A stretch of 64,000 bases of DNA from NCBI RefSeq assembly GCF_024298765.1, contig NZ_CP101210.1; one strand, given 5' to 3'. Below the pieces are notes generated by a model. That model searched no databases. It was not told the origin of the DNA and saw only the letters and a program-made list of their open reading frames with translations. Positions 3,037 to 48,454 of this stretch are shown piece by piece; the stretch's first letter is position 1, and every line of letters begins with the position of its first letter. The translations under genes and the position numbers were made by a program. Origin of the DNA: Escherichia coli. GTDB lineage: Bacteria > Pseudomonadota > Gammaproteobacteria > Enterobacterales > Enterobacteriaceae.

Positions 3037-4836
3037 ATGACGACACAGGTCCCACCTTCCGCGTTGCTTCCGTTGAACCCGGAGCAACTGGCACGCCTTC
3101 AGGCGGCCACGACCGATTTAACTCCTACCCAGCTTGCCTGGGTTTCTGGCTATTTCTGGGGCGTGCTCAACCAGCAGCCTGCTGCGCTTGCAGCGACGCC
3201 AGCGCCCGCCGCAGAAATGCCGGGTATAACTATTATCTCCGCTTCGCAAACCGGCAATGCGCGCCGGGTTGCTGAAGCATTACGCGATGATTTATTAGCG
3301 GCAAAACTGAACGTTAAGCTGGTGAACGCGGGCGACTATAAATTCAAACAAATCGCCAGCGAAAAACTGCTCATCGTGGTGACGTCAACGCAAGGGGAAG
3401 GGGAACCGCCGGAAGAAGCCGTCGCGCTGCATAAGTTCCTGTTCTCCAAAAAAGCGCCAAAGCTGGAAAACACTGCATTTGCCGTGTTTAGCCTCGGCGA
3501 TAGCTCTTATGAATTTTTCTGCCAGTCCGGGAAAGATTTTGACAGCAAGCTGGCGGAACTGGGCGGTGAACGCCTGCTCGACCGTGTCGATGCCGACGTT
3601 GAATACCAGGCTGCTGCCATCGAGTGGCGCGCCCGCGTGGTTGATGCGCTTAAATCGCGTGCGCCTGTCACGGCACCTTCGCAATCCGTCGCTACTGGCG
3701 CGGTAAATGAAATCCACACCAGCCCGTACAGCAAAGACGCGCCGCTGGTGGCGAGCCTTTCGGTTAACCAGAAAATTACCGGGCGTAACTCTGAAAAAGA
3801 CGTTCGCCATATCGAAATTGACTTAGGTGACTCTGGCCTGCGTTACCAGCCGGGTGACGCGCTGGGCGTCTGGTATCAGAACGATCCGGCACTGGTGAAA
3901 GAACTTGTCGAACTGCTGTGGCTGAAAGGCGATGAACCTGTCACCGTTGACGGCAAAACGCTGACCCTGAGCGAAGCGCTACAGTGGCACTTTGAACTGA
4001 CCGTCAACACCGCGAATATTGTTGAGAACTACGCCACGCTTACCCGCAGCGAAACGCTGCTGCCGCTGGTGGGCGATAAAGCGAAGTTACAGCATTACGC
4101 CGCGACCACGCCGATTGTTGACATGGTGCGTTTCTCTCCGGCGCAACTGGATGCCGAAGCGCTGATTAACCTGCTGCGCCCGCTGACCCCGCGCCTGTAT
4201 TCCATCGCCTCCTCGCAGGCGGAAGTCGAGAACGAAGTACACGTCACCGTTGGCGTGGTGCGTTACGACGTGGAAGGCCGCGCCCGTGCCGGTGGTGCCT
4301 CCAGCTTCCTTGCGGACCGCGTGGAAGAAGAGGGCGAAGTCCGCGTATTTATCGAACATAACGACAACTTCCGCCTGCCAGCCAACCCAGAAACCCCGGT
4401 GATTATGATTGGCCCAGGCACCGGCATCGCGCCGTTCCGCGCCTTTATGCAGCAACGCGCCGCCGACGAAGCGCCGGGGAAAAACTGGCTGTTCTTTGGC
4501 AACCCGCACTTTACGGAAGATTTCCTCTACCAGGTGGAATGGCAGCGCTACGTCAAAGAGGGCGTGCTGACGCGTATCGATCTTGCCTGGTCGCGCGATC
4601 AAAAAGAAAAAATTTACGTACAAGACAAACTGCGCGAACAGGGCGCGGAGCTGTGGCGCTGGATCAATGACGGTGCCCATATTTATGTCTGCGGCGACGC
4701 TAATCGCATGGCGAAAGACGTTGAGCAGGCACTTCTGGAAGTGATTGCCGAATTTGGTGGCATGGACACCGAAGCGGCGGATGAATTTTTAAGTGAGCTG
4801 CGCGTAGAGCGCCGTTATCAGCGAGATGTCTACTAA
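3037..4836 (+). CDS. cysJ: sulfite reductase [NADPH] flavoprotein alpha subunit
   Basis: 599-aa ORF; recognised CysJ sequence; flavodoxin and FAD/NADPH domains; followed by overlapping cysI (TAATG). Confidence 0.95.
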
Positions 4837-28022: not shown

Positions 28023-29015
28023 ATGAGTCAGAATACGCTGAAAGTTCATGATTTAAATGAAGATGCGGAATTTGATGAGAACGGAGTTGAGGTTTTTGAC
28101 GAAAAGGCCTTAGTAGAAGAGGAACCCAGTGATAACGATTTGGCCGAAGAGGAACTGTTATCGCAGGGAGCCACACAGCGTGTGCTGGACGCGACTCAGC
28201 TTTACCTTGGTGAGATTGGTTATTCACCACTGTTAACGGCCGAAGAAGAAGTTTATTTTGCGCGTCGCGCACTGCGTGGAGATGTCGCCTCTCGCCGCCG
28301 GATGATCGAGAGTAACTTGCGTCTGGTGGTAAAAATTGCCCGCCGTTATGGCAATCGTGGTCTGGCGTTGCTGGACCTGATCGAAGAGGGCAACCTGGGG
28401 CTGATCCGCGCGGTAGAGAAGTTTGACCCGGAACGTGGTTTCCGCTTCTCAACATACGCAACCTGGTGGATTCGCCAGACGATCGAACGGGCGATTATGA
28501 ACCAAACCCGTACTATTCGTTTGCCGATTCACATCGTAAAGGAGCTGAACGTTTACCTGCGAACCGCACGCGAGTTGTCCCATAAACTGGACCACGAACC
28601 AAGTGCGGAAGAGATCGCAGAGCAACTGGATAAGCCAGTTGATGACGTCAGCCGTATGCTTCGTCTTAACGAGCGCATTACCTCGGTAGACACCCCGCTG
28701 GGTGGTGATTCCGAAAAAGCGTTGCTGGACATCCTGGCCGATGAAAAAGAGAACGGTCCGGAAGATACCACGCAAGATGACGATATGAAGCAGAGCATCG
28801 TCAAATGGCTGTTCGAGCTGAACGCCAAACAGCGTGAAGTACTGGCACGTCGATTCGGTTTGCTGGGGTACGAAGCGGCAACACTGGAAGATGTAGGTCG
28901 TGAAATTGGCCTCACCCGTGAACGTGTTCGCCAGATTCAGGTTGAAGGCCTGCGCCGTTTGCGCGAAATCCTGCAAACGCAGGGGCTGAATATCGAAGCG
29001 CTGTTCCGCGAATAA
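28023..29015 (+). CDS. rpoS: RNA polymerase sigma factor RpoS (sigma-38)
   Basis: Track ORF 27987..29015; 330-aa protein from [21 protein letters not shown] recognised as RpoS; codon 33 is GAG (Glu). Confidence 0.95.
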
Positions 29016-29030
29016 GTAAGCATCTGTCAG

Positions 29031-29066
29031 AAAGGCCAGTCTCTTATGAGGCTGGCCTTTTTCTTT
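29031..29066 (+). terminator. Rho-independent terminator after rpoS
   Basis: 13-bp stem AAAGGCCAGTCTC / GAGGCTGGCCTTT with TTAT loop, followed by a T-run. Confidence 0.7.
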
Positions 29067-29092
29067 TGTATGGGGAGTTGGTATGTTTCGTC

Positions 29093-29125
29093 GCCTGGAT
29101 AAGACACGTCAGCGTCCCATCCGGC
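29093..29125. repeat. REP-like palindrome
   Basis: GCCTGGATAAGACACGTCAGCGTCCCATCCGGC, a REP-type imperfect palindrome between rpoS and hosA. Confidence 0.5.
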
Positions 29126-29135
29126 AATCAACATC

Positions 29136-29543
29136 CTATTTGCTCATCATCTTGCGCACCAGCTGCATAAACAGCTCCTGCTCTTCTCCACTCAAACGCC
29201 CCAAAAATTCCTCATCCACACTGTCACCTATCGGTATCGCCGCAGCAAGTATCTTTTCGCCTTCGGCAGTCAGCCAGACAAAGCGTCGCCGCTTGTCAGC
29301 GGCGTCATGTTCACGTCTGACTAAGCCACGATTTTCCATTCTTGCCAACATTTCTGCCAGCGTTGCTTTGGTGCTGACTGCTGCTTCTATCAGTGCCACC
29401 TGTTCGATACCAGGCTTATCAGCAATGGCGCGCATCACCGCGTACTGTGGTTTGGTCAGGTCAGGTAACTCGTGCTGCCAGCGAGCTGTATGCTGCTGAA
29501 AAAGCTGTCGTAACTGATGGAACGCTTTATTTCGTAACGCCAT
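29136..29543 (-). CDS. hosA: MarR/SlyA-family transcriptional regulator HosA
   Basis: Track ORF 29136..29576; likely 135-aa protein from MALRNKAFHQLRQLF; winged-helix MarR-like sequence; recognised as the SlyA homologue found next to rpoS in non-K-12 E. coli. Confidence 0.75.
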   Translation of the reverse strand: MALRNKAFHQLRQLFQQHTARWQHELPDLTKPQYAVMRAIADKPGIEQVALIEAAVSTKATLAEMLARMENRGLVRREHDAADKRRRFVWLTAEGEKILAAAIPIGDSVDEEFLGRLSGEEQELFMQLVRKMMSK

Positions 29544-29658
29544 GTAAACTCCGGGCAAACTATCTGCCGCTATCATAGCGGTTTTTCAGTGACGAAGAAG
29601 ATGTTGTTACTTTTCAGCGCTTGCCGCGATGAAAACAGAGGCGTATTTTAATAATAAC

Positions 29659-29672
29659 GTTCGTATACGAAC
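29659..29672. promoter_or_regulatory. Perfect 14-bp palindrome GTTCGTATACGAAC upstream of ecdB (candidate MarR-type operator)
   Basis: Perfect dyad read from the sequence, 17 bp upstream of the ecdB start, in the hosA/ecdB divergent region. Confidence 0.45.
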
Positions 29673-29689
29673 AATTTAGAGAGTAAGCA

Positions 29690-30283
29690 ATGAAACTGAT
29701 CGTCGGGATGACAGGGGCTACCGGTGCGCCTCTTGGTGTGGCATTACTGCAAGCGCTGCGGGAGATGCCGAATGTCGAGACTCATCTGGTGATGTCGACG
29801 TGGGCGAAAACCACCATTGAACTGGAAACGCCTTACAGCGCCCGCGATGTTGCTGCCCTCGCAGACTTCAGCCATAACCCGGCGGATCAGGCGGCGACCA
29901 TCTCCTCAGGTTCCTTTCGTACCGACGGCATGATCGTTATTCCGTGCAGTATGAAAACGCTCGCCGGTATCCGTGCCGGTTACGCCGATGGCCTGGTGGG
30001 GCGCGCGGCGGACGTCGTGCTCAAAGAAGGCCGCAAACTAGTGCTGGTGCCGCGTGAAATGCCGCTTAGCACCATCCATCTCGAAAATATGCTCGCACTT
30101 TCACGCATGGGCGTGGCGATGGTGCCGCCGATGCCTGCCTTTTATAACCATCCCGAAACGGTAGATGACATTGTCCACCACGTGGTAGCCCGCGTGCTGG
30201 ATCAATTTGGCCTCGAACATCCCCACGCCAGGCGCTGGCAAGGATTGCCGCAGGTCCGGAATTTTTCTCAGGAGAATGAATAA
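29690..30283 (+). CDS. ecdB: UbiX-family flavin prenyltransferase (Pad1-like; partner of a UbiD-type decarboxylase)
   Basis: 197-aa ORF MKLIVGMTGATGAPLG... typical UbiX/Pad1 fold; symbol from memory of E. coli O157-type annotation (also called pad1/kpdB). Confidence 0.8.
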   Translation: MKLIVGMTGATGAPLGVALLQALREMPNVETHLVMSTWAKTTIELETPYSARDVAALADFSHNPADQAATISSGSFRTDGMIVIPCSMKTLAGIRAGYADGLVGRAADVVLKEGRKLVLVPREMPLSTIHLENMLALSRMGVAMVPPMPAFYNHPETVDDIVHHVVARVLDQFGLEHPHARRWQGLPQVRNFSQENE

Positions 30284-31710
30284 TGGCATTTGATGATTTA
30301 CGCAGCTTTTTACAGGCGCTTGATGACCACGGCCAGTTACTGAAAATCAGCGAAGAGGTGAACGCGGAACCGGATCTGGCAGCCGCAGCCAACGCCACCG
30401 GGCGTATCGGCGACGGCGCGCCCGCGCTTTGGTTTGATAATATTCGCGGCTTTATCGATGCCCGCGTGGCAATGAACACCATCGGTTCCTGGCAGAACCA
30501 CGCGATTTCCCTCGGCCTGCCGCCAAACACCCCGGTTAAAAAACAGATTGATGAGTTTATCCGCCGCTGGGATAACTTCCCCATTGCCCCGGAGCGCCGC
30601 GCCAATCCAGCCTGGGCGCAGAACACCGTCGATGGCGACGAGATCAACCTGTTCGATATTCTGCCACTGTTTCGTTTAAACGACGGTGATGGCGGTTTCT
30701 ATCTCGACAAAGCGTGCGTGGTTTCCCGCGATCCGCTTGATCCGGATAACTTCGGCAAGCAGAACGTCGGCATCTACCGTATGGAAGTGAAGGGTAAGCG
30801 TAAGCTCGGTCTGCAACCGGTGCCGATGCACGATATCGCCCTGCATCTGCATAAAGCGGAAGAGCGCGGTGAAGATCTGCCGATTGCAATCACGCTCGGT
30901 AACGATCCGATCATCACCCTGATGGGGGCCACGCCGCTGAAATACGATCAGTCTGAGTATGAAATGGCAGGCGCGCTGCGCGAAAGCCCGTACCCGATCG
31001 CCACCGCCCCGCTGACCGGTTTTGATGTGCCGTGGGGCTCGGAAGTGATCCTCGAAGGGGTCATCGAAAGCCGTAAACGCGAAATCGAAGGGCCGTTCGG
31101 TGAGTTTACCGGGCACTACTCCGGCGGGCGTAATATGACCGTCGTGCGCATTGATAAAGTCTCTTATCGCAGCAAACCCATTTTTGAATCGCTCTATCTC
31201 GGGATGCCGTGGACGGAAATCGACTACCTGATGGGGCCAGCCACCTGCGTGCCGCTGTATCAGCAACTGAAAGCCGAGTTCCCGGAAGTGCAGGCGGTGA
31301 ACGCCATGTACACCCACGGCCTTCTGGCGATTATCTCCACCAAAAAACGCTACGGCGGCTTTGCCCGCGCGGTGGGCCTGCGTGCGATGACCACGCCGCA
31401 CGGTCTGGGCTACGTGAAGATGGTGATTATGGTCGATGAAGACGTTGATCCGTTCAACCTGCCGCAGGTGATGTGGGCGCTCTCCTCGAAAGTGAACCCG
31501 GCAGGGGATTTGGTGCAGTTGCCGAATATGTCCGTGCTGGAACTCGACCCCGGCTCAAGCCCGGCCGGTATCACCGACAAGCTGATTATCGACGCCACCA
31601 CGCCTGTCGCTCCGGACAACCGTGGTCACTACAGCCAGCCGGTGGTGGATTTACCGGAAACCAAAGCCTGGGCTGAAAAACTGACCGCTATGCTGGCCGC
31701 ACGTCAATAA
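30283..31710 (+). CDS. ecdC: UbiD-family (prenyl-FMN dependent) aromatic acid decarboxylase, catalytic subunit
   Basis: 475-aa ORF, start overlapping the ecdB stop; recognised as the UbiD family (yclC-like). Confidence 0.8.
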   Translation: MAFDDLRSFLQALDDHGQLLKISEEVNAEPDLAAAANATGRIGDGAPALWFDNIRGFIDARVAMNTIGSWQNHAISLGLPPNTPVKKQIDEFIRRWDNFPIAPERRANPAWAQNTVDGDEINLFDILPLFRLNDGDGGFYLDKACVVSRDPLDPDNFGKQNVGIYRMEVKGKRKLGLQPVPMHDIALHLHKAEERGEDLPIAITLGNDPIITLMGATPLKYDQSEYEMAGALRESPYPIATAPLTGFDVPWGSEVILEGVIESRKREIEGPFGEFTGHYSGGRNMTVVRIDKVSYRSKPIFESLYLGMPWTEIDYLMGPATCVPLYQQLKAEFPEVQAVNAMYTHGLLAIISTKKRYGGFARAVGLRAMTTPHGLGYVKMVIMVDEDVDPFNLPQVMWALSSKVNPAGDLVQLPNMSVLELDPGSSPAGITDKLIIDATTPVAPDNRGHYSQPVVDLPETKAWAEKLTAMLAARQ

Positions 31711-31720
31711 GGAGAACAAG

Positions 31721-31957
31721 ATGATTTGTCCACGTTGTGCCGATGAACAGATTGAAGTGATGGCGAAATCGCCGGTAAAAGATGTCTGGATGGTCTACCA
31801 GTGCCAGCATTGCCTCTATACCTGGCGCGATACCGAACCGCTACGCCGCACCAGCCGCGAACATTATCCCGAAGCGTTCCGCATGACGCAGAAAGATATT
31901 GATGACGCGCCGATGGTGCCGAGCATCCCGCCGCTGCTGGCGGAAGGTAAGCGCTAA
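31721..31957 (+). CDS. ecdD: small subunit of the phenolic acid decarboxylase (YclD-like, Cys-rich)
   Basis: 78-aa ORF with CxxC...CxxC spacing, directly downstream of the UbiD-like gene. Confidence 0.65.
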   Translation: MICPRCADEQIEVMAKSPVKDVWMVYQCQHCLYTWRDTEPLRRTSREHYPEAFRMTQKDIDDAPMVPSIPPLLAEGKR

Positions 31958-31958
31958 A

Positions 31959-31990
31959 TAAAAGGTCCGATGCCCATCGGACCTTTTATT
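31959..31990. terminator. Bidirectional Rho-independent terminator between convergent ecdD and ygbN
   Basis: Stem AAAGGTCCGATG / CATCGGACCTTT flanked by an A-run on one side and a T-run on the other. Confidence 0.65.
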
Positions 31991-31994
31991 AAGG

Positions 31995-33359
31995 TCAAAT
32001 TACCGCCCATACGCACCAGGTAATTAAGAATCCGGTAAAACCGAGAATGGTCGTTAACACTGTCCAGGTTTTCAGACCGTCTGCTACCGACAACCCCAGA
32101 TATTTGGTCACAATCCAGAACCCTGAGTCATTAATATGTGACGCACCAAGCCCACCAAAGCAGGCTGCCAGCGTCACCAATACGCACTGAATCGGATTCA
32201 ATCCCATCACCGCTTCTGAGAGTAACCCGCCGGTTGTCAGGATTGCTACGGTTGCTGATCCCTGCGATGCACGCAGCGCCAGTGAAATAATAAATGCGGC
32301 TGGTAACAGAGGCAGGTCAATCATTTGTAGCATGTTGGCAAGGGCTTTGCCGACGCCCGATTCCACCAGCACTTTGCCAAATACCCCTCCAGCACCAGTA
32401 ACCAAAATCACTACCGCCGCAGTGGGAAGGGCTGAGCCCATAATGTCGCTGGTGTGTTGTAAGCTCCAGCCGCGACGTAAAGCCAATAACCAGAATGCCA
32501 GCACCAGCGCAATCATTAGAGCTACCATTGGTGAGCCGATCAGCTGTAGCGTACCAAGCAGGGGATGCGAAGGCGGCATCAGTGTTGCGGAAACCGTACC
32601 CGCCATGATAATCGCGATAGGAATAACAATTAGCGAGGTGACCAGCGCGACGCCCGGTGGATTTATTTTATCGCTTAATTTTGTCGCGCCTTCCTCACTG
32701 GCCGGAGCCAGTTGCATCTGTTCCAGTACCTCGACCGACATCGCATATTGGCGCTTATTGATTATTTTCGCTGCAAAGTAGCCAACAATCCCTACGGGAA
32801 TAGAAATCGCAATACCGATGATGGTTAGCCAGCCGATGTCTGCGTGGAGTAACCCCGCTGCGGCGACAGGGCCTGGATGCGGCGGTACCGCCACGTGAAC
32901 AGTGAGCATGATCCCAGCGACAGGCAGGCCAAATTTGAGTGGTGATATTTTGGCAACCTTGGCAAAACCGTAAATGATTGGCGCAAGAATAATAAAGCCG
33001 ACATCAAAGAAGACGGGAATACCGAGGAAGAACGCTGCCAGAGTCAGCGCAGCGATAGTTCGTTTGTCGCCTAACTTGCGACTGAAATAATTAGCCAGTG
33101 ACTCTGCACCACCAGAGTGTTCGATCATACGCCCCAGCATAGCGCCCAGACCAATAATAATAGTGACGGAACCAAGCACACCGCCCATCCCGGCGATCAT
33201 CACTTTACCCACTTCGCCCGCCGGTATACCCGCCGCAAGTGCGACTAACAGGCTGACGAGGAGCAGAGCAACGAATGGTTGTACCTTTGCCTTGATGACC
33301 AGCAGCAACAGCATGATTACGCCAGCTAACGCAATGCATAACAATGTAATTGTGGACAT
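31995..33359 (-). CDS. ygbN: GntP-family permease YgbN
   Basis: 454-aa polytopic membrane ORF recognised as YgbN. Confidence 0.85.
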   Translation of the reverse strand: MSTITLLCIALAGVIMLLLLVIKAKVQPFVALLLVSLLVALAAGIPAGEVGKVMIAGMGGVLGSVTIIIGLGAMLGRMIEHSGGAESLANYFSRKLGDKRTIAALTLAAFFLGIPVFFDVGFIILAPIIYGFAKVAKISPLKFGLPVAGIMLTVHVAVPPHPGPVAAAGLLHADIGWLTIIGIAISIPVGIVGYFAAKIINKRQYAMSVEVLEQMQLAPASEEGATKLSDKINPPGVALVTSLIVIPIAIIMAGTVSATLMPPSHPLLGTLQLIGSPMVALMIALVLAFWLLALRRGWSLQHTSDIMGSALPTAAVVILVTGAGGVFGKVLVESGVGKALANMLQMIDLPLLPAAFIISLALRASQGSATVAILTTGGLLSEAVMGLNPIQCVLVTLAACFGGLGASHINDSGFWIVTKYLGLSVADGLKTWTVLTTILGFTGFLITWCVWAVI

Positions 33360-38806: not shown

Positions 38807-41368
38807 TTACACCAGACTCTTCAAGCGATAAATCCACTCCAGCGCCTGACGCGGGGTGAGTGAATCTGGGTCGAGATTTTCCAGTGCTTCGACCGCAGGC
38901 GACGTTTCTTCTGGCACTGACAGCAAAGACATTTGCGTACCATCCACTTGCGTCGCGGCGGCGTTCGGCGAAATGCTTTCCAGCTCACGCAGTTTTTGCC
39001 GTGCGCGCTTAATAACCTCTTTTGGCACGCCGGCCAGAGCTGCAACCGCCAGGCCGTAGCTTTTGCTCGCTGCGCCATCCTGCACGCTGTGCATAAAGGC
39101 AATGGTGTCGCCGTGCTCCAGTGCATCGAGATGCACGTTGGCGACGCCTTCCATTTTCTCCGGTAACTGGGTCAGCTCGAAATAGTGGGTAGCAAACAAC
39201 GTCAACGCTTTAATCTTATTCGCCAGATTTTCCGCGCACGCCCACGCCAGCGACAGACCATCGTAAGTGGACGTTCCACGCCCAATCTCATCCATCAGCA
39301 CCAGACTGTACTCGGTGGCGTTATGTAAAATATTGGCGGTTTCGGTCATTTCCACCATAAAGGTTGAACGCCCGGATGCCAGATCATCCGCTGCCCCTAC
39401 GCGGGTAAAGATGCGATCGATAGGTCCAATCTCGACTTTTTGTGCCGGTACATAGCTGCCGATGTAGGCCATCAGCGCAATCAGTGCGGTCTGGCGCATA
39501 TAGGTACTTTTACCGCCCATATTCGGACCGGTAATGATCAACATGCGACGCTGCGGCGACAGGTTCAGCGGGTTGGCGATAAACGGCTCATTCAGCACCT
39601 GTTCAACCACCGGATGGCGGCCTTCGGTGATGCGAATACCCGGTTTATCAATAAAGGTCGGGCAGGTGTAGTTCAGCGTATAGGCCCGTTCCGCCAGGTT
39701 CACCAGCACGTCGAGTTCCGCCAGCGCGCTCGCGCTCTGTTGCAACGCTTCCAGATGCGGCAACAGCAGGTCGAACAACTCTTCATAAAGCTGTTTTTCC
39801 AGTGCCAGTGCTTTGCCTTTTGAAGTGAGAACTTTGTCTTCGTACTCTTTTAGCTCTGGAATAATGTAGCGCTCGGCGTTTTTCAGCGTCTGGCGACGCA
39901 TGTAATTGATGGGTGCCAGATGGCTTTGTCCACGGCTGATCTGAATGTAATAACCATGAACCGCGTTAAAGCCGACTTTCAGGGTGTCCAGGCCAGTACG
40001 TTCACGCTCGCGGACTTCCAGACGCTCCAGATAATCGGTCGCGCCGTCAGCCAGCGCGCGCCATTCATCCAGTTCTTCGTTATAACCAGTCGCAATAACA
40101 CCACCGTCGCGTACCAGCACCGGCGGCGTGTCGATGATTGCTCGCTCCAGCAGGTCGCGCAGTTCGGCAAACTCGCCCATCTTCTCACGCAGTGCTTGTA
40201 CCGGGGCGCTATCGACACCTTCCAGTTGCGCGCGCAGCTCCGGCAGTTGCTGGAAAGCGTGACGCATACGGGCCAGATCGCGTGGACGAGCAGTTCGTAA
40301 AGCCAGACGCGCCAGAATACGTTCCAGGTCGCCGACCTGACGCAGTACCGGCTGCAGCTCGGCGGTGAAATCCTGCAATGCGCCAATAGTTTGCTGGCGC
40401 TCAAGCAACACGCGGGTATCGCGCACTGGCATATGCAGCCAGCGTTTCAGCATACGACTACCCATCGGCGTTACAGTACAGTCGAGCACTGAAGCCAGCG
40501 TATTTTCCGCACCGCCGGCCAGGTTCTGAGTAATTTCCAGGTTACGACGCGTCGCGGCATCCATAATGATGCTGTCCTGCTGACGTTCCATAGTGATAGA
40601 ACGAATATGCGGCAGGGTCGTGCGTTGGGTATCTTTCGCATACTGCAACAGACAACCGGCAGCACAAAGTCCGCGTGGTGCGTTCTCCACACCAAAACCG
40701 ACCAGATCTCGGGTGCCAAATTGCAGGTTCAATTGCTGGCGAGCGGTGTCGATTTCAAACTCCCACAGCGGGCGACGACGCAGGCCGCGGCGACCTTCAA
40801 TCAGCGACATCTCGGCGAAATCTTCCGCATACAGTAATTCCGCTGGATTCGTACGTTGCAGTTCTGCCGCCATCGTTTCGCGGTCCGCCGGTTCGCTCAG
40901 GCGAAAACGCCCGGAGCTGATATCCAGCGTGGCGTAGCCGAACCCCTTGCTGTCCTGCCAGATAGCCGCCAGCAGGTTGTCCTGACGTTCCTGCAACAGC
41001 GCTTCATCGCTGATGGTGCCCGGCGTAACGATACGGACAACTTTGCGCTCGACCGGCCCTTTGCTGGTCGCCGGATCGCCAATCTGTTCACAAATAGCAA
41101 CCGATTCGCCCTGATTCACCAGTTTGGCGAGGTAGTTTTCCACCGCATGGTAGGGAATCCCCGCCATCGGGATCGGCTCTCCCGCCGAAGCACCGCGTTT
41201 GGTCAGTGAAATATCCAGCAGTTGCGATGCGCGTTTTGCGTCGTCATAAAACAGTTCATAAAAATCACCCATCCGGTAAAACAGCAGGATCTCGGGATGC
41301 TGGGCTTTCAGCTTGAGATACTGCTGCATCATGGGCGTATGGGCATCGAAATTTTCTATTGCACTCAT
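38807..41368 (-). CDS. mutS: DNA mismatch repair protein MutS
   Basis: 853-aa ORF recognised as MutS (Walker [10 protein letters not shown]). Confidence 0.97.
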
Positions 41369-41612
41369 GGGGTTATGTCCGGTTCCCTGATATTAAATGG
41401 GGTGTGATGGTTTTTATTTTCGTTGTAATCACATAAGGCGCACATGATACCGGAGTTAATCATTTCAGGGGAAGAAGCGAACGGCGAGTTCTTGATGGTG
41501 ATTCCGGGAAAGATGCTGTTTTGCAGCTTTTGCGTGATGACGATGAAACAAGATCGCAAAATTCGTCGGTTGAAGAAACCTCCTCCTTCAGAGACATAGT
41601 CCCCTTTAAAAT

Positions 41613-41635
41613 TAAGTTGTAATATAAATGCACCT
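41613..41635. promoter_or_regulatory. Candidate NsrR-type operator upstream of ygbA
   Basis: Half-sites AAGTTGTAATA / AAATGCACCTT separated by 1 nt; the second half (reverse complement AAGGTGCATTT) matches 10/11 of the NsrR half-site consensus as I recall it. ygbA is a known NsrR target in E. coli. Confidence 0.35.
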
Positions 41636-41653
41636 TAAGAGTATGGAGGCAGC

Positions 41654-41998
41654 ATGTCCGGCAAGCGTATCTCTCGTGAAAAACTGACGATTAAAAAAAT
41701 GATCGATCTTTATCAAGCGAAATGCCCGCAGGCGTCAGCGGAGCCGGAGCATTACGAGGCGTTGTTTGTTTACGCGCAAAAGCGGCTGGATAAATGTGTG
41801 TTCGGCGAAGAGAAACCAGCCTGTAAGCAGTGTCCGGTGCACTGTTACCAGCCTGCAAAGCGTGAAGAGATGAAACAGATTATGCGTTGGGCCGGGCCGA
41901 GAATGCTGTGGCGTCATCCGATCTTAACCGTGCGTCATCTCATCGATGACAAGCGTCCGGTGCCGGAGTTGCCAGAAAAATATCGTCCAAAGAAATAA
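41654..41998 (+). CDS. ygbA: nitrous oxide-stimulated promoter family protein YgbA
   Basis: 114-aa Cys-rich ORF in conserved position divergent from mutS. Confidence 0.8.
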   Translation: MSGKRISREKLTIKKMIDLYQAKCPQASAEPEHYEALFVYAQKRLDKCVFGEEKPACKQCPVHCYQPAKREEMKQIMRWAGPRMLWRHPILTVRHLIDDKRPVPELPEKYRPKK

Positions 41999-42036
41999 AT
42001 CTGCCGGAGAGCCATACTCTCCGGCAAATACGGCGC

Positions 42037-42465
42037 TTACGCTTTGGTGGCAATCAGGATGGCTGATGCTTTGATCAATGCAATAACGCGCGAGCCAGTG
42101 GTGAGTTTCATTTCATCCTGACTTTCATTTGTTACCACTGCCACAATTTCAAAACCCGCATCCGTTTTGATATGGACAGTGGCGTTCACTGCGCCTTCGG
42201 TGATTGTCGACACGCTGCCAGCAAACTGGTTGCGAGCAGAGAATTTCAGTCCACAGTCTTCCGTTGCCAGCGTGACCCACGGGGCTTTAATCAGGGCAAT
42301 CGCTTCTTTCCCTTTCGCCAGACCCAGCGCTTGCTGGCTGCTGTGAGTCACAATTGCCACCAGCTTTGCACCACCTGCCAGCGTCAGTTCTACTTCGTCA
42401 TTCACCGCGCCCATTGCTACTGCGCTAACTGTTCCGGTTAATTGATTTCTTGCTGAAACTGCCAT
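42037..42465 (-). CDS. tandem TOBE-domain molybdate/molybdenum-pterin-binding (Mop-like) protein
   Basis: Track ORF 42037..42504; likely start at 42465 (MAVSARNQLTG) after AAAGGAGG. Two repeats of the SARNQ...G.V...ALIKA TOBE/Mop pattern. Confidence 0.65.
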   Translation of the reverse strand: MAVSARNQLTGTVSAVAMGAVNDEVELTLAGGAKLVAIVTHSSQQALGLAKGKEAIALIKAPWVTLATEDCGLKFSARNQFAGSVSTITEGAVNATVHIKTDAGFEIVAVVTNESQDEMKLTTGSRVIALIKASAILIATKA

Positions 42466-42509
42466 ACTGCCTCCTTTCATTGAATGTTGATCGAGTATAA
42501 CCACATCTG

Positions 42510-44588
42510 TTAAATCAATGCCGATTTATCAATTCCCAGTCGCTTCATTCGTGACAGCAGAGTCGTGCGTTTCAGCCCCAGACGTTGCGCAGCGCCTTTA
42601 GGCCCGGCAACCACGCCGTTTGTTTCTTTCAGCACGCGAACAATCAACTGATATTCATCTTCGCCCTCCTGGGCGACAACCGTTGCGGCAGGCGGCGTTT
42701 CAGGTTCTGGTAAAGCAATATCTGGCAATGACAGCTGCAGCACGTTGCCGCGTGTTAGCAATACCGCGCGCTCAATGACGTTTTCCAGCTCACGCACGTT
42801 GCCCGGCCATTCCATGTTGCTCAGGATGCGCAGCGTCTCGGCAGGAATGCTGTCGATATTGCGCCCCAGACGACGGGCAATTTTGAAGGTAAAGGCTTTC
42901 GCCAGCAGCGGAATATCTTCCGGACGCTCGCGTAGTGGCGGCAGGTGGATCGGGAATACGTTCAGACGGTAATAGAGATCGCTACGGAACTCTCGGTCGG
43001 CGACCATTTTTTTCAGATCGCGGTTAGTCGCGGCAATTAAACGTACGTCCGTCTGAATGATTTTGTTGCTGCCGAGACGTTCAAACTCCTGTTCCTGTAA
43101 TACACGCAGCAACTTCGGCTGTAACTCCAGCGGCATATCGCCCACTTCATCGAGGAATAGTGAGCTTTTATCCGCCAGTTCAAAACGACCAATGCGCTGA
43201 GCGCTGGCACCGGTAAAAGCCCCACGCTCATGACCAAATAGATCGCTTTCCAGCAATCCGGCAGGCATCGCCGCGCAGTTCATTTTGACCATGCGGCGAT
43301 TATTACGCCCACTGAGATTATGGATCGCGCGGGCAATCAGCTCTTTACCTGTACCAGTTTCACCGAGGATCAGAACGGTACTGTCACTTTGCGCCACCAT
43401 TTCAACTTGTTTAAGTACGCTGTACATGGCTTCGCTGCGGCCAATAATCTCGCCAAATTCACTATCAACATTGTTGAGCTGCTCGGTCAGGGCGAGGTTT
43501 TCATCAACCAGCCGTTCTTTCAGACGATGAATTTCCTGATAGGCGAGGGCGTTATCGACAGCGATTGCCACACGTTCGGCAATCTGGCGCAGTAAATTCA
43601 GATTGGTAGTGGTAAAGACTTTCTCTTCGCATTGCGCCAGTTTTAGCACGCCCAGCATAGTGTCGCCAGACATCAGCGGTAACAGGCACAAGGTTTGAAT
43701 CTGGTTGCCCCAGGTGTTGAACAACATGCGTTCATAGGGGGCTAAATCGTCCCGCTCGTGGAGATTAATCAACAGCATCTCTTTACTTTTGAAGACGCGT
43801 TCGGTGAGGGTTCCGGCTTCATCGACTTCGCTCTGTTCGTGGGCGGGATGCTGTTTATCAAGATAGTGAGTGGAGTAGATGTTGAGTTTGTTTTTACGGT
43901 GGCTGCGTAAGACGATGCTGATATCGTCAATGTCGAAATAGTAATGGATTTCTTTGGCGACTTCGCTGACCAGTTCGTCCATATCCAGGCGGGAAAGCAC
44001 CGCGTTAGTGATGGCGACCAGGATGCGGAAGTTATCGCGTTCCCGGCATAACAACTCATAGTCGACATTGTTAACGACGCGGCTCTGGATTTGTTCGGTG
44101 ACGACAGAAACGATCTGCGTAAATGTTTGCAGACGATTGAACTCTTTTTCGCTCCAGGGGCGATCGTCATGACGAATAAATTCACAGCCACCAAAAATAT
44201 GCCCTTCCGCCGCCAGTGGCATCAGGCAATAGTGACCAAATTTGGGGTATAGCCCACCTGTGGCCAGCTGCGGCCAGGTTTCACAAAATTCTTCGTAACT
44301 GCAATGCAGCGTATCAGGGCGCGACAAAATGCTGCGTACCGGACCGTGTGCCAGAACAGTTTCGTCTTCATATTTAATGGGGGTGTCTTTTTCACGCGAT
44401 GCGTAATAAGACGCACGTTGAGTCTGCGCTTGCCACAACACAATAGCCGCGTTGTCGGCGAGCGCAGAACGCTTTACCAGTTGCGAAAGAGCCTCACACA
44501 GCGAGGCCAGATCGGGCTGCTGCAATAGTGTCCGAGTGATGTCGAACAACCCTTGCTGTCCGAGATCACTCATCGGTGTATATGACAT
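42510..44588 (-). CDS. fhlA: formate hydrogenlyase transcriptional activator FhlA (sigma-54 dependent)
   Basis: Track ORF 42510..44624; likely 692-aa protein from MSYTPMSDLGQQGLF; AAA+ sigma-54 activator motifs (GETGTGKE, GAFTGA) and C-terminal HTH. Confidence 0.9.
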   Translation of the reverse strand: MSYTPMSDLGQQGLFDITRTLLQQPDLASLCEALSQLVKRSALADNAAIVLWQAQTQRASYYASREKDTPIKYEDETVLAHGPVRSILSRPDTLHCSYEEFCETWPQLATGGLYPKFGHYCLMPLAAEGHIFGGCEFIRHDDRPWSEKEFNRLQTFTQIVSVVTEQIQSRVVNNVDYELLCRERDNFRILVAITNAVLSRLDMDELVSEVAKEIHYYFDIDDISIVLRSHRKNKLNIYSTHYLDKQHPAHEQSEVDEAGTLTERVFKSKEMLLINLHERDDLAPYERMLFNTWGNQIQTLCLLPLMSGDTMLGVLKLAQCEEKVFTTTNLNLLRQIAERVAIAVDNALAYQEIHRLKERLVDENLALTEQLNNVDSEFGEIIGRSEAMYSVLKQVEMVAQSDSTVLILGETGTGKELIARAIHNLSGRNNRRMVKMNCAAMPAGLLESDLFGHERGAFTGASAQRIGRFELADKSSLFLDEVGDMPLELQPKLLRVLQEQEFERLGSNKIIQTDVRLIAATNRDLKKMVADREFRSDLYYRLNVFPIHLPPLRERPEDIPLLAKAFTFKIARRLGRNIDSIPAETLRILSNMEWPGNVRELENVIERAVLLTRGNVLQLSLPDIALPEPETPPAATVVAQEGEDEYQLIVRVLKETNGVVAGPKGAAQRLGLKRTTLLSRMKRLGIDKSALI

Positions 44589-48308: not shown

Positions 48309-48326
48309 AAGCAATAATTGTGCCAG
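48309..48326 (-). promoter_or_regulatory. sigma-54 promoter (-24/-12) of the hyp operon
   Basis: Minus-strand TGGCACAATTATTGCT matches the TGGCAC-N5-TTGC consensus. Confidence 0.6.
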
Positions 48327-48438: not shown

Positions 48439-48454
48439 TGGCACAAAAAATGCT
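48439..48454 (+). promoter_or_regulatory. sigma-54 promoter (-24/-12) of the hyc operon
   Basis: TGGCACAAAAAATGCT, GG and GC elements 12 bp apart; about 37 bp upstream of the hycA ATG. Confidence 0.6.

Follow-up and report, generated by a model that had tools for sequence, protein, structure and literature searches.

A stand-alone tandem-Mop gene between fhlA and ygbA of Escherichia coli, ancestral in Enterobacteriaceae and absent from K-12-type strains

The interval between fhlA and mutS of E. coli K-12 holds ygbA as its sole gene (PMC7232297). In the stretch of E. coli DNA analyzed here, which measures 64,000 nucleotides (contig NZ_CP101210.1; hereafter the window), a further reading frame of 142 codons is found between fhlA and ygbA, and its presence raises two questions: what does this frame encode, and was it gained by the strain at hand or lost by the K-12 lineage? 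An initial annotation, made from the letters of the sequence alone, had described an extra gene with two TOBE/Mop repeats and a strong ribosome binding site, and had suggested, from the formate hydrogenlyase genes nearby, a role in the buffering or sensing of molybdate. Subsequent analysis, detailed below, identifies the product as a protein composed of two Mop domains (di-Mop) and assigns the difference from K-12 to a loss rather than a gain.

Reading frame, neighboring genes and expression signals

The di-Mop coding sequence occupies positions 42037..42465 on the minus strand, exactly where it was first placed, with its ATG at 42465-42463 and its stop codon at 42039-42037 (142 codons plus stop). 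Its designation as a tandem-TOBE, ModG-type molbindin draws upon the open reading frame itself, profile searches, the match to ModG, an AlphaFold2 model, and the RefSeq annotation of a 429-nt coding sequence at the same place in other strains, strain S6 among them. The proposed ribosome binding site was borne out, as the Shine-Dalgarno sequence AAGGAGG (42470..42476, minus strand), read directly from the sequence, lies 4 nt upstream of the ATG, with GGAGG at 42474-42470, and GGAG(G) is kept in the spacer between fhlA and the di-Mop gene at all 39 of the 39 orthologous loci examined. A longer reading of 155 amino acids from a GTG at 42504 was rejected, since it is the ATG at 42465 that is served by GGAGG and since both RefSeq and the orthologs give 142 amino acids.

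The gene had been annotated before, as c3292 of strain CFT073, and it corresponds to RefSeq WP_000301062.1, a "TOBE domain-containing protein." As c3292 it has been used as a PCR target under the description "putative molybdenum-pterin-binding protein" (PMC4209514). Naming is inconsistent across sources, which offer "transporter," "molybdopterin-binding protein," "molybdate transport system regulatory protein," and "TOBE domain-containing protein"; the first and third of these are over-annotations. Within NCBIfam only the domain model TIGR00638 applies, and ModG-type proteins lack a model at the equivalog level.

Directly upstream, on the same strand, lies fhlA (42510..44588, minus strand), encoding the transcriptional activator of formate hydrogenlyase (FHL), separated from the di-Mop start by a spacer of 44 nt (42466..42509, minus strand) that contains no terminator and holds the sequence TATACT (42499-42494). 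On the other side, an intrinsic terminator with a 14-bp stem and a T-rich tail (41999..42029, minus strand) follows the di-Mop gene and faces the convergent ygbA (41654..41998, plus strand), such that this hairpin probably ends the transcripts of both genes; mutS lies beyond ygbA at 38807-41368.

A search for promoters identified a single perfect sigma-54 consensus site in the window (0 mismatches; 48310..48325, minus strand), located upstream of hypA. Its position, together with the known hyc and hyp promoters, makes it the likely distal promoter of a hypABCDE-fhlA transcript that may extend through the di-Mop gene. Back-to-back with it in the divergent hycA-hypA region is a second sigma-54 site with one mismatch (48439-48454, plus strand) that faces hycA, and we take the pair to be the expected FhlA-dependent hyp and hyc promoters. 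Near the di-Mop gene the sigma-54 scan returned only chance-level sites inside the gene itself, a sigma-70 consensus scan of positions 41500-42900 returned no promoter, and inspection by hand of the TATACT sequence (42494-42499) found neither an acceptable -35 element at 16-18 nt nor a TG extension. Pentamer repeats of the ModE type (TATAT-N7-TAYAT) are likewise absent from the vicinity of the gene, and their count in the window as a whole is at chance level. Because the 44-nt spacer thus contains neither a terminator nor a recognizable promoter, the di-Mop gene most likely forms the last cistron of the hypABCDE-fhlA transcript.

Similar spacers are found in related bacteria. In most genera the distance between fhlA and the di-Mop gene is 36-56 nt, and in most the spacer has little tendency to fold (-1 to -10 kcal/mol). 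Three loci (L010, L032, and L033) have spacers that are longer and structured, in one case like a terminator, indicating that co-transcription with fhlA is not universal. In Escherichia, Citrobacter, Kluyvera, and Pluralibacter (loci L003-L012, L015, L020, L022, L026-L029, L034, L036, and L046) the spacer repeatedly contains a motif reading (G)CTATACT or GCTATAA, while the rest of its sequence diverges; this motif may serve as a weak -10 box of an internal promoter, or alternatively as a signal for processing or translation.

Distribution of the gene and polarity of the difference from K-12

The absence of the gene from K-12, which had been anticipated, was confirmed by direct comparison: in a K-12-like laboratory strain the di-Mop gene is missing and 36 nt separate fhlA from ygbA, in agreement with the published description of the interval (PMC7232297). 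Among 5426 complete E. coli genomes, 1892 carry the gene, always as a single chromosomal copy and in no case on a plasmid. When a 1.1-kb probe spanning the interval was used, the full arrangement was recovered in 1889 of the 5426, with the remainder matching the two flanks only, and a 121-nt probe laid over the K-12-type junction matched at full length in 3505. The 3505 genomes with the junction and the 1892 gene carriers make up nearly all of the 5426, and the locus is thus essentially biallelic.

Which of these two alleles is the older can be read from other species. A scan of one genome per species, in which HypE, FhlA, YgbA, and MutS were placed by tblastn, provided 49 loci, and at approximately 36 of these hypE, fhlA, and the di-Mop gene follow one another on one strand, usually with ygbA next. 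This order is shared by Escherichia albertii and a cryptic Escherichia clade, and by species of Citrobacter, Pseudocitrobacter, Klebsiella, Raoultella, Kluyvera, Pluralibacter, Yokenella, Lelliottia, Enterobacter, and Kosakonia. Across the loci from different species, the di-Mop protein (80-99%) diverges in step with the products of the flanking genes. Synteny in many genera, combined with a single deletion junction, points to a loss in the K-12 lineage and not to a gain in the strain analyzed here. The di-Mop gene is therefore ancestral in Enterobacteriaceae, K-12-type E. coli carry one shared deletion, and the description of the gene as "extra" had the polarity reversed.

The deletion was accompanied by changes on the ygbA side, as the K-12-type allele also differs in the last codons of ygbA, which encodes 114 amino acids in the window and 117, with a different 3' end, in the K-12-type allele, as well as in the terminator hairpin. 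The terminator stems of the two alleles, compared between positions 41990-42035 of the window and 4395-4442 of locus L002, differ in sequence (GCCGGACAG...CTGTCCGGC versus GCCGGAGAG...CTCTCCGGC). An altered ygbA end together with an altered hairpin stem indicates a replacement or an imprecise deletion, as opposed to a clean excision.

The reading against which this polarity must be weighed is that of a strain-specific islet acquired by horizontal transfer, or of a decaying or spurious reading frame. Such a reading could appeal to the interval between fhlA and mutS as a known hot spot for the gain of islands, including SPI-1 (PMC7232297), and to the 65% of complete E. coli genomes in which the gene is missing. 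This reading is, however, difficult to reconcile with a position and orientation conserved in many genera, with divergence that follows the flanks, with the lack of plasmid-borne or additional copies, and with the single shared deletion junction; no mobility genes or repeats were found at the di-Mop locus. Furthermore, dN/dS values of the gene against orthologs from other genera lie between 0.02 and 0.085, a range indicative of strong purifying selection and of a reading frame far beyond chance. Taken together, conserved synteny, single-copy chromosomal occurrence, dN/dS, and the single junction effectively refute both the island and the spurious-frame versions, to which we assign a negligible probability.

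Two further observations concern the locus within E. coli. Rare secondary disruptions were seen in strains 21F61 (NZ_CP147038.1) and FDAARGOS_1285 (NZ_CP070152.1): one of the two is otherwise identical to the window and carries an IS200C-family transposase gene within the 1.1-kb interval, and in the other the di-Mop gene is reduced to its first ~126 nt (the 5' end, on the fhlA side). Elsewhere in the window, positions 28900-32100, beside rpoS, encode subunits B, C, and D of a hydroxyarylic acid decarboxylase along with a MarR-family regulator. This interval represents the "kpd/yclC-slyA" type of the polymorphic region between mutS and rpoS, a type present in 2378 of the 5426 complete E. coli genomes, and its presence here indicates that the di-Mop gene is not confined to strains with the CFT073-type (pattern III) arrangement.

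In a minority of the species surveyed the gene is uncoupled from fhlA. In Raoultella sp. BIGb0138 (L014) and Enterobacter sp. BIGb0383 (L030) the whole hyc-hyp-fhlA block is missing and the di-Mop gene is kept; at these two loci asc-like PTS and beta-glucosidase genes lie upstream of it, and sitABCD-like genes or ygbA come after. At three loci of Phytobacter and Kosakonia sp. (L035, L040, and L047) hypB, hypD, and hypE are followed directly by the di-Mop gene, with fhlA lacking in Phytobacter. The loci in Raoultella sp. BIGb0138, Enterobacter sp. BIGb0383, and Phytobacter indicate that the gene is retained independently of FhlA. In Serratia, Cedecea, and Edwardsiella, the gene stands among unrelated genes (dapA/bcp/perM-like genes, an aldehyde dehydrogenase, and transporters), and a search for molybdenum-related neighbors in these three genera found none.

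Domains, fold and oxyanion-ligand positions

The presence of two TOBE/Mop repeats, as first proposed, was upheld by profile searches. Two Pfam TOBE domains (PF03459) were detected at residues 4-66 (1.6e-17) and 76-137 (6.2e-16), and the NCBIfam model TIGR00638 ("Mop," molybdenum-pterin binding domain) was matched in two stretches at 142 bits versus a cut-off of 55. The two domains fully cover the 142 amino acids of the protein, leaving room for no other, and the halves are 42.9% identical to each other.

Of all sequences in the PDB, the closest is ModG of Azotobacter vinelandii (1H9J/1H9K/1H9M; E=5e-33), itself a stand-alone protein of ~140 amino acids with two Mop/TOBE domains, to which residues 1-140 align with 48.6% identity over 140 residues. 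Both proteins contain the SARN, GAVN, and KA motifs in both halves. An AlphaFold2 model built with 27 homologs is predicted with high confidence (pLDDT 96.5, pTM 0.88) and superimposes on 1H9J with a TM score of 0.95 and an rmsd of 1.3 A. The genomic settings of the two genes differ, as work cited in PMC11980592 describes A. vinelandii modG as residing in the mod locus under ModE control and serving nitrogenase, whereas the enterobacterial gene lies behind fhlA, in the region of the hyp operon, and neither mod genes nor a ModE-like operator occur nearby.

Second among PDB matches is the C-terminal di-Mop domain of E. coli ModE (1B9M, 1O7L, 1H9R/S; E ~1e-15, 39.0% identity), which has the same tandem-Mop fold (TM 0.88-0.90 to the model) and whose first half shares the SARNQ and KAPWV motifs. 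In contrast to ModE, the di-Mop protein is devoid of an N-terminal winged-helix DNA-binding domain: profile searches of the protein for a helix-turn-helix or other DNA-binding domain found none, and its match to the ModE model NF007957 is confined to model positions 124-261, at 88 bits versus a cut-off of 369. The second half of ModE has, moreover, lost both SARN (replaced by NADNQ) and KA (replaced by NA), and neither ModE half contains GAVN (DDVQ and GAEQ at the aligned positions), while ModG contains this motif twice and the di-Mop protein keeps every motif in both halves. The lack of GAVN from ModE, together with the loss of SARN and KA from its second half, groups the di-Mop protein with ModG, and by both sequence and fold it is nearer to ModG than to ModE or to the TOBE regions of ModC.

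The third group of PDB matches consists of the single-domain Mop/Tub proteins, which form hexamers (MopII of Clostridium pasteurianum, 1GUG; Mop of Sporomusa ovata, 1FR3; Tub of Eubacterium limosum, 9BEB). Each half of the di-Mop protein aligns to these (E ~1e-9), with 40% identity between half 2 and Tub, and the ligand positions carry the same numbers (S4, R6, A20-V21-N22, S/T40, K60, and A61). As two domains are fused here in one chain, a trimer, rather than a hexamer, would give the eight-site particle. A weaker similarity links half 2 to the C-terminal regulatory TOBE domain of the ABC ATPases ModC and WtpC (E 1e-12 to 1e-13), far below the cut-offs for these families: only the C-terminal ~65 model positions are matched, at 25-49 bits versus cut-offs of 285-440, and an ABC ATPase domain was not found. 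Unlike ModC and WtpC, the protein therefore is not a transporter component, as one of its database names would have it.

The residues that hold the oxyanion in molbindins have been defined in a 2025 study of Tub. In the type-1 site, on the three-fold axis, the ligands are the backbones of A20, V21, and N22; in the type-2 site S4 and K60 contribute through their side chains and R6 and A61 through their backbones, with S40 supplied by a neighboring domain (PMC11980592). In the di-Mop protein the equivalents in the first half are, with the same numbering, S4, R6, A20-V21-N22, T40, K60, and A61, and those in the second half are S76, R78, A92-V93-N94, T112, K132, and A133. Across 41 full-length orthologs each of these positions, for both site types and in both halves, is either invariant or retained in 40 of the 41, with 40-41 of the orthologs preserving the type-1 loops G19-A20-V21-N22 and G91-A92-V93-N94. 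That both halves contain the GAVN loop, a feature of ModG and not of ModE, favors a ModG-like assembly. ModG has been described as a trimer whose di-Mop chains form two type-1 and six type-2 sites (PMC11980592), and a trimer with eight sites is, for the di-Mop protein, an expectation drawn from this homology. On the same comparative grounds, a role in molybdate binding draws strong support from the homology to ModG and from the complete retention of ligand positions.

The resemblance to ModE bears upon a second possibility, namely that the protein is not a store but a regulatory partner, contacting the di-Mop domain of ModE or FhlA and thereby tuning molybdate-dependent expression of modABC, hyc, fdhF, or nar. 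In its favor are the fold and the 39% identity shared with the ModE C-terminal domain, and in most Enterobacteriaceae the gene sits directly behind that of the FHL activator. Expression of hyc and fdhF in E. coli depends on molybdate and ModE, and in Rhodobacter capsulatus a small Mop protein reportedly interacts with a ModE-like regulator. The protein nevertheless lacks any DNA-binding domain and corresponds to only part of ModE, it is clearly nearer to ModG, and its type-1 loops, missing in ModE, imply a different, three-fold assembly. In addition, the gene persists at loci without fhlA, and molybdate-dependent control is present in K-12 without it. For these reasons a regulatory partnership is considered unlikely, and the sensing role once suggested for the gene finds no direct support in a protein without a DNA-binding domain and a locus without a ModE-type operator.

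Probable function and significance

The explanation that we regard as probable, and with good confidence, is that the product is a ModG-type molbindin, cytoplasmic and made up of two Mop domains standing alone, that its gene is the last of the hypABCDE-fhlA operon, that the protein buffers molybdate or tungstate, and that the gene is ancestral and was lost in K-12-type strains. Each half of the chain would fold as a TOBE/Mop beta-barrel, and three chains, by analogy with A. vinelandii ModG, would assemble into a pseudo-hexamer with room for as many as eight oxyanions of molybdate or tungstate. Two type-1 sites would lie on the three-fold axis, formed by the backbone of the G-A-V-N loops, and six buried type-2 sites would lie at domain interfaces, formed by the S-A-R-N and K-A motifs together with a Thr or Ser from the neighboring domain. 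The gene would be transcribed behind fhlA and translated from its own strong ribosome binding site, and the protein could serve as a buffer or store of molybdate made under fermentative, formate-induced conditions alongside the molybdoenzyme FDH-H. A search of the accessible literature for experimental work on binding, oligomeric state, or expression of the enterobacterial gene returned no such study, only two papers that touch on the gene in passing.

Of the role proposed from the FHL neighborhood, then, it is the binding of molybdate that has gained substance. The connection to FHL itself is a possible one, suggested by position and probable co-transcription, and the gene is kept in two species devoid of hyc-hyp-fhlA. 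Moreover, as K-12 runs FHL without the di-Mop gene, the gene is dispensable for FHL.

As molbindins bind both oxyanions, the preferred ligand could also be tungstate, a poison of E. coli molybdoenzymes, in which case the protein would act as a trap that protects FDH-H and other such enzymes in the gut. It is consistent with this proposal that E. limosum, a gut bacterium, stores tungstate in a TOBE protein and that the "TudG/ModG" architecture occurs in more gut species predicted to use tungsten than molybdenum (PMC11980592), and the alignment of half 2 with Tub noted above can be counted in its favor. No feature of the sequence discriminates tungsten from molybdenum, however, Enterobacteriaceae are molybdenum users, and tup genes are not found near the di-Mop gene, such that a dedicated tungstate trap appears very unlikely.

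The kind of protein, the fold, and the chemistry of di-Mop molbindins are already well established, and the importance of the buffer preferred here is correspondingly modest: a conserved gene of enterobacterial molybdenum homeostasis, present in strains such as CFT073, ST131, and IAI39 and in most related genera, is missing from K-12. A bolder proposal, which we hold to be rather unlikely and put forward tentatively, is that the protein, produced along with FhlA and the Hyp maturases, is a dedicated, operon-encoded gatekeeper of molybdate (or tungstate) for FHL, setting the pool of free molybdate seen by ModE, MoeA, and FhlA. If this were true, the molybdenum and tungsten physiology of gene-bearing E. 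coli and most Enterobacteriaceae would differ systematically from that of the K-12/O157-type deletion lineages, for example in FDH-H activity at low molybdenum or in sensitivity to tungstate treatment of the gut, and K-12 would represent this part of metal homeostasis poorly. In the inflamed gut, enterobacterial blooms are driven by molybdoenzymes, including formate dehydrogenases and nitrate reductases, and the use of tungstate as an intervention has been proposed. Since these blooms rely on molybdoenzymes, a cytoplasmic buffer of molybdenum and tungsten that varies between lineages could modulate the phenotypes in question.
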